DNA of 64,000 nucleotides. Origin: a virus. Its lineage: Duplodnaviria; Caudoviricetes. The notes beneath the pieces were generated by a model that was not told the origin of the DNA, searched no databases, and saw only the letters and a program-made list of their open reading frames with translations. The position numbers and the translations under genes are program-made. Location of the stretch: positions 15,327 through 79,326 of the IMG/VR virus record IMGVR_UViG_3300021400_001413, one strand, 5' to 3'. The first letter of the stretch is position 1. Every line of letters starts with the position of its first letter. Positions 5,223 to 30,281 of this stretch are shown here, piece by piece.

Positions 5223-5404
5223 AAGCTATTTAATAAATTTAATCTTACCTTTAGCAGTATATTTATCTCCATTTTTAAGAGTTATCAATACTTTTTCAAC
5301 ACCTCTAGAATCAACATCCTCTATCTCTTCTAAAGAAAAGCAATGTTCTTTATTTGCACTGTCTTCAAATTTGATTCTCATAACTTGATTGTTTTAGATT
5401 GTAT

Positions 5405-5647
5405 CTATTCTCTATAACCATCATATATTTCTATCTCAGGGATGTCAAATCCCCAGTTAGATACAGGGAATACAATAACAGGATGACCTACTTTCTTACT
5501 TAGCATATTCAAATCCTCAAGAGAGTCCAACTCTACAGTGTAAGACTCAGAGAGTCTCCCATCTTTAGGAATTAACTCTTTTTGTGCTCCTGGACACTGG
5601 GGATTCTCTTCCGGATAGCAATTACTTCTGCTTACTACATATTTCAT
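5405..5647 (-). CDS. hypothetical protein
   Basis: 80 aa ORF packed tightly in the operon. Confidence 0.6.
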   Translation of the reverse strand: MKYVVSRSNCYPEENPQCPGAQKELIPKDGRLSESYTVELDSLEDLNMLSKKVGHPVIVFPVSNWGFDIPEIEIYDGYRE

Positions 5648-5654
5648 AATACTT

Positions 5655-6041
5655 CTATCTAATCATTCCTAATTGTCTCATCTCCCTATAATCCATAAAG
5701 AGGGCATTCTTACCTTTATACTCCTCAGGTAAATGCTGATAGAACTCTGAAGCTTTCTTAATGCCTACTAAGTGTCCTGTTCTCCAAGGATTCTTCATAT
5801 CATCAGACTTCTCAGGGTCTATGCCTATAACAAAAAAAGCATCCTGGTCCAGAATCTTCTGACACTCCTTGCAAGGCTTATCAGAGTAACCAATAACCTT
5901 ATCATGCATTTCTTCTACCTTCTTAGCATCTGCCTTAGTTAATCTTGTATTCATGACAATAGCAGAAGCATCTTCATCAACCTGTCCACATATAGGACAT
6001 ACATACTTCACTACTGAAGCAGCAAATTTCTTCTCTTCCAT
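5655..6041 (-). CDS. hypothetical Zn-binding protein
   Basis: Two CxxC motifs (CPIC, CKEC). Confidence 0.6.
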   Translation of the reverse strand: MEEKKFAASVVKYVCPICGQVDEDASAIVMNTRLTKADAKKVEEMHDKVIGYSDKPCKECQKILDQDAFFVIGIDPEKSDDMKNPWRTGHLVGIKKASEFYQHLPEEYKGKNALFMDYREMRQLGMIR

Positions 6042-6052
6042 AATATTTGCTA

Positions 6053-6265
6053 TTAGTTATTCTCTTTTGGCATTGGGGGATAATGAAACTCATTTTCTTT
6101 GCAGGGACTAATAGAGACAGTAACTCTATCTCCTATATTGTATCCACCACAATCTTTTAAAATAAAGTCTCTTATAAGAATAGCACCACCACAATCTGAA
6201 AATATTTTTCGATTTTCTCCATCGGAGTATTCTGTTATTTCTCCAGATATTTTTATTTCTCTCAT
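6053..6265 (-). CDS. hypothetical protein
   Basis: 70 aa, co-oriented, A-rich leader. Confidence 0.5.
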   Translation of the reverse strand: MREIKISGEITEYSDGENRKIFSDCGGAILIRDFILKDCGGYNIGDRVTVSISPCKENEFHYPPMPKENN

Positions 6266-10269: not shown

Positions 10270-10446
10270 AAGCTGAATTGTTTTGTTGTAAGATTAATAG
10301 TAGTCTCAATGAGAATCGAACTCATATCTAAGGTTTAGGAAACCTTTGTTCTATCCATTGAACTATAAGACCAAATGCCTGCCACTGTAGGCTTAACATT
10401 TAAAGAAAAATTTGAAACGAATATGTCGCTCTCTCAGCGAGTAAAG

Positions 10447-11117
10447 TGATTCTGCTGGGGCTCGAACCCAGGACCTACTGCTTAGTTTGCTACTCTATGT
10501 TACCATAGCCAAACAAAGATAGTATCCTTTCTTCCTCCTCCTAAGTTTCCCCAGGCGATACTAAGTTATTTCATAGGGCTAACCCTTTGTTTGTTGTAGT
10601 CTGGAATACATTATTACTATATTGAAATTCTTGCAAGATTAGATTTACTTATATAGTCCTTTCTTTTATTTTTCCGTATCTTGTCCTACAGCTTAACGTA
10701 TTCACCATAGGGGAGCGCAGTTTATTTCACCTGAAAATACTTAAACTAACTTCATAAGTCTAAAATTTCAACTTAGGCATTCTTATCAGATACATCTGAA
10801 TAGAATGTGAGGGTATTCAATATATTTCCCTCATATCTCCTATATACTCTCTACACATTTATGAAGGAAGAAACTCATATTCATTTCTTTGTAGATTGAC
10901 CTTCAATTTAGCACGGTATTATCCTTACACATTATTGGTTAGTGTTGTGGTTCCTCCGCCATACTTAAGCCACACATTATAAATTGCAGGTTTGAAGGGA
11001 AGGACTTTCACCGTTTTAGGGAGATTCTACTATGGGATTTCTCGCCATAGCACTCCTGTTTATTTATTCACAGAAACATTTGAAGGCAGTTGCTCTATCC
11101 AGCTGAGCTACAGAACC
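10447..11117 (-). tRNA. tRNA-Arg(UCU), intron-split (exon 1 11117-11083, exon 2 10485-10447)
   Basis: Joined exons read GGTTCTGTAGCTCAGCTGGATAGAGCAACTGCCTT|CTAAGCAGTAGGTCCTGGGTTCGAGCCCCAGCAGAATCA. This is a full cloverleaf with anticodon stem ACTGC/GCAGT, loop CU-UCU-AA, TTCGA T-loop and the A20 Arg identity base; CCA is not encoded. Confidence 0.9.
10486..11082 (-). mobile_element. group I-like intron (597 nt, no homing endonuclease ORF)
   Basis: Core pairings in canonical order on the minus strand: P3 AUCUCC(C)U 11025-11018 / AGGAGAU 10841-10835; P4 ACGGUG 11014-11009 / UACCGU 10918-10913; P5 GUCCUU / AAGGAU; P7 GAGAGUA 10851-10845 / UAUUCC 10608-10603; GNRA hairpin CUAUG-GUAA-CAUAG 10508-10495. 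Confidence 0.8.
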
Positions 11118-11140
11118 AAAAAATCCCTCCGCTGAGGGAT
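11118..11140 (-). terminator. terminator-like hairpin directly 5' of the tRNA
   Basis: ATCCCTC-AGCG-GAGGGAT followed by TTTTT, then tRNA G1. Confidence 0.5.
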
Positions 11141-16228: not shown

Positions 16229-17383
16229 TTATTCAAGATTTTGGGCTTTTTCTTTAATAGCATCCACCACAGTCTCATCAAGAAGCTTGGCATATATTTG
16301 CTCTGTTATCTTCAAAGATGAATGTCCACATATCTTAGTGACTATCTTCATATCTATTCCTTCGTTAAGGAGGATAGTTGCTCCAGTATGTCTAGCCCAG
16401 TGTGTAGTTAATCCAACATCTAACCCTGCTGCTTGTGCTACATTCTTCAAGTAGAGATTATATTTCACATTACTTATTATAGGTAATACCCCTCTGTATT
16501 TAGCAAGAATATCAAGAGCAGGCTGGAGTAGGGGAATAGTAGTACTTTTCTTTGTCTTCTTCTGATTGAACTTATAGACTTCTGTACCATTAATGATTAC
16601 TATATTGTTAGGATTGAATCTTGCAAGATCTGAGTATCTCAGGCAAGTATAAGTCTGGAATACAAATAAATCTCTGACTCTTTTAAGACTATCTGTAGGC
16701 ATCTTAGCAATTCTTAATTGATGGAATTCATTTAAAGTCAGACATTTATCCAAACTATTATTGTCCTTTCCTTTATCTATATTTACCCACTTATATGGAT
16801 TTCTTTGCAGTAGCCCGTCATCAATTGCATCTAAGATAAAACTATTAAGAAAGCGGTGGTAGTTCTGCCATTTGCTGTAGTTCTTCATACCTTGGTGTAT
16901 AAGGTATTTGTCATAAGCTATGATATTACTGTCATTGATATCATTGAATGTCTTTATCTTTCCCCAGGAAGTGAATTTCCTGAGAAACCTTTCATATCTC
17001 TGCTGGGTGTCTTTCTCTTTACCGTACTCTCTTACAGCAGCCCTCTGGTTACAAAAATCAATGAATCCGATTTTATCAAGCTCTTTCCTGTTGAGTCTAT
17101 CCTGAATAGTGAATATATCAATATTGTCTTCTTGGATCATATCTATTAGCACCTGTCTTACATTAGATACAAGCTTATCAAGAACCTGACTTATCTGAAG
17201 GATATTATCACAGTTGGTTATCTTGCCATCTTTCCATTGATTAGGATATAACCATATTCCAGTACTGAGGTATTTCTGTTTTCTGTTGTGAGTTACTCTG
17301 ATTTCTACTACAGCTTTGGTCTTTGCATCTGCTTTCTTATACCTATTATATATAAGGTGTATTTGTGGAAATTTGTTATTCAT
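16229..17383 (-). CDS. int: tyrosine integrase, Bacteroidota type with arm-binding N-terminal domain
   Basis: N-terminal VEIRVTHNRKQKYLSTGI arm-binding module; catalytic set intact: CLRYSD (R), KTKK (K), HWARH (HxxR), GHSS (H), QIYAK (Y). Confidence 0.92.
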   Translation of the reverse strand: MNNKFPQIHLIYNRYKKADAKTKAVVEIRVTHNRKQKYLSTGIWLYPNQWKDGKITNCDNILQISQVLDKLVSNVRQVLIDMIQEDNIDIFTIQDRLNRKELDKIGFIDFCNQRAAVREYGKEKDTQQRYERFLRKFTSWGKIKTFNDINDSNIIAYDKYLIHQGMKNYSKWQNYHRFLNSFILDAIDDGLLQRNPYKWVNIDKGKDNNSLDKCLTLNEFHQLRIAKMPTDSLKRVRDLFVFQTYTCLRYSDLARFNPNNIVIINGTEVYKFNQKKTKKSTTIPLLQPALDILAKYRGVLPIISNVKYNLYLKNVAQAAGLDVGLTTHWARHTGATILLNEGIDMKIVTKICGHSSLKITEQIYAKLLDETVVDAIKEKAQNLE

Positions 17384-28745: not shown

Positions 28746-30281
28746 ATGGCTGGACAAATTGGAAAATTTACAATGCAGCATTTTGATGCTTGGGCTCCAA
28801 ACATCACAAAGAAAACGCATATCAGCTCAATCTTTGGTTCTAAGACCCAGAAGGTTCGTGGTTTGATGGTTGAATTGTTGGCTGCTACTAATGGCCCCAC
28901 TTTTGATACATTGGTATCAAAGCTTCCTACAAAGGAATTTGAGAATGGTGATGACTATGTATGGGATGTTACTGGTTCTACAGACCGAGTAATTGAACTG
29001 CTGGAGTGCCGTGATGAGAATGGTGTTGTAGTTGATGCTAATTACACTGATAATGTAGGTGCAGGTACAGCTCCTTTCTATCTGGTATTTGGAGAGCACT
29101 GGTTCTTTAAGGGAGAGACTATTGAAGGTAACCTTGGTAACAAGTATCCTTTGCGAGTTCTTGAGGATGCACGTGAAGAGGGTTCTCGCTATGTGTATAA
29201 GGTAGAGACTATGGCTGGTATCACTGATGGTGTTCCCGCAGAGCGTCTGATGCCTGGTGAGATGTTTAGTTATGGTGCTGCCTTTGTAGAAGGAGGTCTT
29301 TCTCGTAAGGTTGGTGGTATTCGCCATGCAATTCCTGCAACTCTTCGTAATGAGTTCTCTCATATTCGTATTCATCACAAGGTATCTGGTGATATGATGG
29401 ATGATAAGCTGGCTATCTCTGTTCTGGTGAACAAGGGTCAGGGTGTTAAACCAACTCCAGTTAATTCTTGGATGCTGAATGTGGACTTTGAGCTTGAGAA
29501 GACATTCCGTGATTATAAGACTTATGCTCTTGTTTGGGGTCGCAGTAACCGCAATAAGAATGGTGAGTACACTAACATTGGTGTATCAGGTGATGCTATT
29601 CGCACAGGTGCTGGTCTTTATGAGTTGATGGAGCAAGGCGGTAATACTATTTACTACAATGACTCTCCTCTGAAGATGATTGAGGAAGGTCTCTATGCAT
29701 TGTTTGCAGGAAGAACTGACTTCAAGGATAGAGCTGTAACTGTTAGAGGTGGTGAGCGTGGTATTGCTTGGTTGCAGAAGGAAGCTTCTCAGGAGGGATC
29801 AGGCTGGAAGTCAGCTTATGAGTTTGATGCAGTAGCTCTTGGTTTGGCAAAGAAGGCTTCTGCTGCTCATGCTCCTTATGGTGGTGGCATCTCTGTAGCT
29901 ACTCCTCAGGTTGTTGAGTTTATTGCTCCTATGGGTATTAAGATTACCTTTGAGGTTGACCAGAGCAAGGATAACATCAATCACAGTGGTTACAAGCTTA
30001 CACATCCTCTGGGAGGCCCTGTAAGCTCTTATTGCTTTGATATTCTTGACCTTGGTTCAAGTGTAGAGCCAAATATCCAGAAGTGTAAGATTAAGGGACA
30101 TCCTGATGAGTGGATGGGCTATGAGGCTGGTTTCCGCAATCCTTTCACTGGTGCATGGAACAATGACCACATGAGTAACGATGAGGATGCTGCTGTAATT
30201 CACAAGATGGCAGATGTAGGTATTGTTGTTTGGGATCCTACTCGTACAGTAAGGGTTCTTCCTGACATCCTTTCAGATTAA
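28746..30281 (+). CDS. major capsid protein
   Basis: About 511 aa, crAss-like position, strongly biased codons (Arg mostly CGN), followed by a strong hairpin. Confidence 0.85.
   Translation: MAGQIGKFTMQHFDAWAPNITKKTHISSIFGSKTQKVRGLMVELLAATNGPTFDTLVSKLPTKEFENGDDYVWDVTGSTDRVIELLECRDENGVVVDANYTDNVGAGTAPFYLVFGEHWFFKGETIEGNLGNKYPLRVLEDAREEGSRYVYKVETMAGITDGVPAERLMPGEMFSYGAAFVEGGLSRKVGGIRHAIPATLRNEFSHIRIHHKVSGDMMDDKLAISVLVNKGQGVKPTPVNSWMLNVDFELEKTFRDYKTYALVWGRSNRNKNGEYTNIGVSGDAIRTGAGLYELMEQGGNTIYYNDSPLKMIEEGLYALFAGRTDFKDRAVTVRGGERGIAWLQKEASQEGSGWKSAYEFDAVALGLAKKASAAHAPYGGGISVATPQVVEFIAPMGIKITFEVDQSKDNINHSGYKLTHPLGGPVSSYCFDILDLGSSVEPNIQKCKIKGHPDEWMGYEAGFRNPFTGAWNNDHMSNDEDAAVIHKMADVGIVVWDPTRTVRVLPDILSD

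Follow-up and report, generated by a model that had tools for sequence, protein, structure and literature searches.

The window, by which we mean the whole 64,000-nt stretch of phage DNA analysed here, carries on its minus strand a tRNA-Arg(UCU) gene that is interrupted within its anticodon. When introns were allowed, ARAGORN called tRNA-Arg(tct) at c[10446..11117] with a 597-nt insert. The 5' exon (11083..11117, 35 nt, minus strand; ARAGORN -i) contains the acceptor 5' strand, the D arm, the 5' strand of the anticodon stem, and C32, U33 and U34. The 3' exon (10447..10485, 39 nt, minus strand; ARAGORN -i) starts with C35, U36, A37 and A38, continues through the 3' strand of the anticodon stem and the variable loop, and ends with the T arm, the acceptor 3' strand and a discriminator A. 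The joined exons give a cloverleaf with a 7-bp acceptor stem, a D arm and a T arm, and both ARAGORN and the sequence itself yield a 5-bp anticodon stem (ACUGC/GCAGU) closing the loop CUUCUAA. The split anticodon and the full two-exon cloverleaf reported in the preliminary description are thus reproduced by a program that permits long introns, which had been recommended as a check.

Between the exons lies an ORF-less group I-type intron (10486..11082, 597 nt, minus strand), defined by ARAGORN -i and by the family alignment described below. Under the U(-1)/omega rule of that family the splice junction is U34|C35, inside the anticodon. ARAGORN placed the junction at C35|U36, and the product is identical because a C stands at both ends of the intron. 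An opal-suppressor interpretation, with the loop CUUCAAA and the anticodon UCA, was rejected, since the window reads well in code 11 and the U(-1)/omega rule gives UCU; one relative (L033) is labelled 'SeC' by ARAGORN. No ORF of at least 40 aa occurs within the 597-nt insert, in agreement with the earlier remark that it lacks an endonuclease ORF. One 47-aa ORF with a TTG start, on the opposite strand, clips the edge of the insert.

An intact tRNA-Arg(CCU) (10300..10372, minus strand) lies 74 nt downstream on the same strand and was found by both ARAGORN and Rfam (69 bits). Default ARAGORN and the Rfam tRNA model saw this gene only, as had been anticipated for standard scanners, and the split tRNA-Arg(UCU) reached 17 bits in a permissive Rfam search. 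These two tRNA-Arg genes are the only tRNAs in the whole 79-kb IMG/VR record. Because default tRNA scanners and Rfam overlook the whole intron family, the tRNA complements of many large rumen phages are underestimated. Immediately upstream, at window positions 11123-11140 (minus strand), a 7-bp GC-rich hairpin is followed by UUUUU and ends 1 base before the tRNA 5' end. With a terminator-like hairpin in this position, transcription of the tRNA pair must either read through it or start at a promoter lying before it. By eye, TAnnTTTG strings are visible about 100-150 nt upstream, and we take these to be of the Bacteroidetes -7 promoter type.

The head module of the phage matches PHROG families for the major head protein, the portal and the large terminase that appear to be crAss-like. 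A tyrosine-integrase-like gene at 16229-17383 (minus strand; phrog_1, E 1.6e-37) suggests a temperate lifestyle.

A td-like string in the insert prompted a search for relatives. A core motif with 23 specified bases matched 54 IMG/VR loci, and a 3'-junction motif of the Arg site added 5 viral and 21 metagenome contigs. Among 185,579 prokaryote genomes there was a single match, in a ruminal Paludibacteraceae MAG. The family therefore appears to be carried almost entirely by phages, and that one named record points to an association with the rumen. Its introns are ORF-less and approximately 435-830 nt long. About 37 of 47 distinct copies are located in anticodon loops, in tRNA-Arg, Leu, Met, Ser, Lys and Tyr; ARAGORN -i alone puts about half of the copies there. 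The Arg(UCU) U34|C35 site holds 27 copies, the window copy included. Several large phage contigs (L029, L039, L064, L093 and IMGVR_UViG_3300021399_003927) carry 2-3 intron copies in different tRNAs of a single tRNA cluster.

In three relatives (L063; L064:804-1367, minus strand; L075:10764-11353, plus strand), ARAGORN reports a tRNA-Arg(UCU) of 82 nt and an intron copy follows about 40 nt further on. Only the 3' half of a tRNA-Arg comes after that copy, and a pseudo-P1 (AUCC/GGAU) replaces the 5' exon. This arrangement resembles a partial duplication that a moving intron left behind. Other searches around the locus returned little: exact searches of IMG/VR with the exon-intron junction and with the 3' exon gave no match, blastn of the region against cultured phages matched the tRNA parts only, and no tRNA lies close to the relatives of the flanking 153-aa gene (L002-L005), which left synteny uninformative.

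We aligned 48 distinct copies (alignment A1) and wrote out a group I core consisting of P2, P3, P4, P5, P5a, P6, P7, P8, P9.0 and P9. Across the 59 proposed pairs, 97.6% of cells are paired and 24 pairs change on both sides. None of 500 shuffles reached any of these measures, and slid-partner controls paired at 36-49%. The elements follow the order P3-P4-P5-P6-P7-P3'-P8-P7', including the P3/P7 pseudoknot. Covariation across 48 homologues thus upholds the earlier reading of P3, P4, P5 and P7 in canonical order with a long P8.

All elements of the window copy are on the minus strand. Upstream of P2, a P1-extension hairpin with a GUGA loop (11062..11077) was recognised by eye; it contains a C.U mismatch (U at 11066) that is C-G in seven relatives. 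The P2 hairpin, UGCUAUGG / CCAUAGUA (11028..11052), has 8 pairs that are 100% paired, 5 of them changed on both sides. P3 joins AUCUCC (11020..11025) to GGAGAU (10835..10840) and is 100% paired in the 48 copies. The P4-P5 domain (10913..11014) comprises P4 (ACGGU/ACCGU), P5 (UCCUU/AAGGA), a conserved P5a (ACAC/GUGU) and a variable extension, and within P4 an A-U pair in 25 copies is U-A in 23. In the P6 hairpin (UGAAGG / CCUUCA, 10862..10905), 5 of 6 pairs are changed on both sides. P7 is formed by GAGUAUA (10843..10849) and UGUAUUC (10604..10610) in A1, and its first pair, G10849-C10604, is G-C in 45 of 48 copies, so that the P7 G-C pair noted earlier is indeed intact. Three of the next 4 pairs covary. 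Only UA (2 nt) separates P7 from P3' in the window intron.

The long P8 (10617..10777) has a CC/GG base (C.A in the window copy, with A at 10618), a stem GUUGAAAUU/AAUUUCAAU and a large variable loop. The 5' strand of P9.0, CUAC (10596..10599), pairs with GUAG (10490-10493), and one of its pairs is C-G in 34 copies and U-A in 11. The P9 hairpin, CUAUG GUAA CAUAG (10495..10508), is invariant in the family. Two initial placements were discarded. An ACUAUC close to the 3' end, chosen for P7' on the model of td, is not conserved in the family alignment; P8 had been read as UGAGGG/CCCUCA, which the alignment puts in an optional module. That module, a 56-nt pair of hairpins between P3' and P8 (10778..10833; A1 columns 616-671), is present in about 9 of the 48 copies. 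Its carriers have near-identical versions of it in otherwise different introns, as though the module were spreading by itself.

The internal guide sequence is GGAG (11053..11056, minus strand). P1 pairs exon CUU with GAG of the guide at 3 of 3 positions, namely C(-3)-G, U(-2)-A and the U(-1).G wobble (U34.G11055) at the 5' splice site, and C(+1) pairs in addition with G11056. A possible P10 would be only 2 bp, C35-G and U36-A, formed with G11056 and the A at 11057, and the omega position falls 3 nt after P9.0. The 3' end was set from within the intron, at the third base past the 3' strand of P9.0, and the 5' end was placed so that the exons form a normal tRNA. In 33 copies the three bases before P2 give U(-1).G and 3 of 3 P1 pairs. 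The guide tracks the exon from site to site (exon/guide UCU/GGA, CAU/GUG, CUU/GAG, ACU/GGU and UGU/GCA). Such covariation is the behaviour expected of a true P1 with an internal guide sequence, and the family would be a clean natural case of one ribozyme, carried by phages and not by bacteria, that is retargeted to many tRNAs by changes in three guide bases. Two copies (L038:1221-1734 and L061:4941-5504, both minus strand) differ in that C apparently replaces U before the 5' splice site, so that CUC/GAG is all Watson-Crick. They resemble the unusual Leu.3Cg type (Williams 2020), and their 3' boundary is shifted.

The covariance model result needs to be read against its control. Rfam RF00028 (Intron_gpI) gave no match, at gathering or at permissive (E<=10) thresholds, in the window or in the whole record, and none in 8 relatives. 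A missing group I hit had been named beforehand among the grounds for giving up the assignment. The search did come back empty, but under the same conditions (Rfam 15 cmscan, permissive filters) RF00028 also missed a T4-type td intron (L007) and the intron of L006, which makes that refutation invalid. Since the td control was missed, the Rfam negative carries no weight, and 'No Rfam hit' is an unfit ground for dismissing phage group I introns. The L006 intron (5330-6159) has a LAGLIDADG-like ORF and sits in a ribonucleotide-reductase-like gene.

In the window copy, the terminal omega G, a hallmark of group I introns, is absent (A at 10486), and P1, the core and the G-C pocket are present. A compromised ribozyme route and the lack of an Rfam match would suit a non-ribozyme insert that is removed by proteins (an endonuclease and a ligase), a route that has been put forward for other unusual phage tRNA inserts. 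We regard this as very improbable, given a complete covarying group I core together with a guide sequence. The 59-pair core and a guide that covaries with the exon support the original designation as a group I-type intron, and from this evidence the insert is almost certainly a group I intron by descent.

At the omega position (10486..10486, minus strand) the window copy has A, and every one of the 26 other copies at the Arg site has G. Before the exon sequence CUAAGC, sister introns end in ...AGG|, ...AAG| or ...AUG|, and the window copy reads ...CAAA|CUAAGC; the terminal A change is the reason why the intron has 'CAAA at both ends'. Across the family as a whole, 40 of 47 distinct copies have G at the corresponding fixed position. 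The terminal A was found in no other viral or metagenome contig, in a search whose 3'-junction pattern left two bases there free. Two alternative terminal G positions were examined and rejected: GUAG|CAAAC falls inside P9.0 and would leave a loop of 11 nt, and CUAAG|CAGU would delete half of the anticodon loop. The rest of the intron is well preserved. Of the 156 columns conserved across the family, one differs in the window copy, a G to A change at 10618 that produces the C.A mismatch at the P8 base. Among the 194 columns conserved within the Arg site-3 subgroup the window copy differs at 3, fewer than most sisters do.

Guanosine is recognised through a base triple with the P7 G-C pair, via its N1 and 2-amino groups (PMC2588497, PMC13168695), and in Azoarcus the guanosine pocket is G129-C176 and the omega nucleotide is G205 (PMC13168695). 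By analogy with G129-C176, G10849-C10604 would be the guanosine-binding pair of the window intron. Adenosine is without the N1-H and 2-amino groups that the pocket reads. In Tetrahymena, the G414A change reportedly blocks exon ligation unless the pocket is also changed (Price and Cech 1988; Michel et al. 1989).

These features suggest a mechanism in which the two steps of splicing fare differently. What the first step requires is in place (P1 with its U.G, the core and the G pocket), and exogenous G could cut after U34. For ligation, the terminal nucleotide must occupy the guanosine pocket; A is ill-suited to this because it offers neither the N1-H nor the 2-amino group, and we infer that exon ligation would be strongly impaired. 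If the A is neither an assembly error nor a minor variant, the gene would yield hardly any mature tRNA-Arg(UCU), or none. Taken as a whole, we consider it probable that the insert is a group I intron by descent in which 5' cleavage may occur and ligation would be strongly impaired unless the A is an artefact. As for the base itself, the balance tips towards a real inactivating change. An assembly error or minor variant is an unlikely source of the A, and a tolerated A is unlikelier again. With exons and core intact, the change would be recent, tolerated, or an artefact of assembly or of a minor variant. The perfect exons and near-perfect core fit a gene still under selection.

Codon usage bears on the idea that splicing gates translation. 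As claimed before, AGA is common in this phage, accounting for 61% of Arg codons in 48 ORFs (AGG, 23%), and the major head protein (28746-30281) does use mostly CGN, CGT and CGC making up 16 of its 22 Arg codons. Of all Arg codons, 85% are matched by one or other of the two phage tRNAs. The avoidance of AGA by the head protein, together with this match, perfect exons and a core deviating at a single conserved column, would agree with a fully self-splicing intron whose removal sets how much tRNA-Arg(UCU) is available to AGA-rich genes, the A being tolerated or absent from the phage population. We consider this rather unlikely, because the omega nucleotide is A while the pocket, with its P7 G-C pair unchanged, stays G-specific, and because the G is kept in every sister copy. 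Moreover, constitutive self-splicing would gate nothing, and a gating role, for which codon usage is the one piece of support, presupposes an intron that splices.

There is also a slim chance that splicing completes without a terminal guanosine, or that the RNA is a one-step ribozyme cutting the pre-tRNA at U34 without rejoining it. If so, P9.0/P10 geometry and not the omega G would pick the 3' splice site, or the phage would keep a tRNA-cleaving RNA for some other purpose. On the reading that we favour, impaired ligation, the phage's own supply of tRNA(UCU) hangs on base 10486. Nature has here replaced the omega G by A in a core that is otherwise intact, and the window copy thus offers a ready test of how strictly a tRNA group I intron depends on its terminal G.

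Free-standing relatives between genes raise the question of whether excision is the point at all. One (L008:1185-1638, plus strand) lies between a complete tRNA-His and a complete tRNA-Lys, with a 10-bp helix closing it. Others (L035:11549-12053 and L036:180-780, both minus strand, and L052) are outside any tRNA and are followed by a hairpin and a U-run. Two of these relatives, L008 and L035, are also without a terminal G. Such copies would be expected if the insert were a structured RNA with its own job, for which the tRNA is merely a carrier. For the window copy we find this hard to credit, although not quite as hard as protein-mediated removal: it has a full P1 with the U.G matched to its own exon, and it shares the exact Arg site-3 layout of the 26 G-ending copies. 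The simplest account is an intron with one changed base. A shared TCTTTGAAA string precedes the free-standing L008, L035 and L036 and also L106, and L035 and L036 retain the guide GUG of the tRNA-Met(CAU) copies. The free-standing copies may be domesticated or trans-acting derivatives.

Among phage introns, the T4 td intron (IA2) has strings in P3-J3/4-P4 and P4'-P6 that are strikingly like those of the window intron, for example AAUNCCGUGCUAAAUUGNAGG. However, td lies in a protein gene, has an endonuclease ORF in P6 and possesses P7.1/P7.2. The 'enigmatic' tRNA introns of Lak megaphages are likewise in phage tRNA genes, with gut or rumen-type hosts; they are unclassified, one looking tRNA-shaped, and are likened here by description alone (PMC6784885). 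The authors of that study described phage tRNA introns as previously unreported (Devoto et al. 2019, PMC6784885).

The bacterial tRNA introns provide the closer comparison. Williams (2020) catalogued 21 bacterial tRNA intron settings, with U(-1)/omega G in 98.5% of calls, and we compared by eye the rows of the seed alignment in the supplement of that work (bioRxiv 10.1101/2020.01.27.920355). The rows Rba190.Arg.3Ug and Aol6.Ile2.5Ug share with the window intron, in the same order, CUUC..GGAG.UGC, AAAUUCGG.GAAA.CCUU, GU.GUAGAGACU..C.GG, CACC.UAA and A.AGUCCAG. From these strings, compared by eye and unscored, the family appears to be related to the bacterial IC3 tRNA introns. These are approximately 200-250 nt long, whereas members of the phage family span about 435-830 nt and have large arms in P5, P6, P8 and P9, with the 56-nt module as an optional extra. 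The Azoarcus tRNA-Ile(CAU) intron (IC3) resembles the window copy in being an anticodon-loop intron with a 3-bp exon part of P1, in its GUGUAGAGACU and CCUAAG..UAUGG strings, and in its P7 G-C pocket and P9.0. It is shorter (approximately 205 vs. 597 nt), is inserted after the third and not the first anticodon base, and has its terminal G. The tRNA-Leu(UAA) intron of cyanobacteria and plastids ('Leu.3Ug') follows U34 as in the window but interrupts a different tRNA; the phage family has 10 copies in tRNA-Leu(UAA), 8 at the exact Leu.3Ug site and 2 one base upstream.

The nearest counterpart is Rba190.Arg.3Ug. Like the window intron, it is inserted at CUU|C in the anticodon loop, and its P1 pairs CUUC with GGAG and is followed by the UGC of P2. 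The order of elements is the same, with near-identical strings in J3/4-P4, J6/7-P7-P3' and J8/7-P7'. In contrast, the window intron is carried by a phage, is approximately 600 nt long with large additions in P5, P6, P8 and P9 and the 56-nt module, has P7 GAGUAUA/UGUAUUC in place of GACUA/UAGUC, and ends in A, not G. The 'Arg.3Ug' insertion setting is thus already catalogued for bacteria, and the window copy is a phage-borne member of it.
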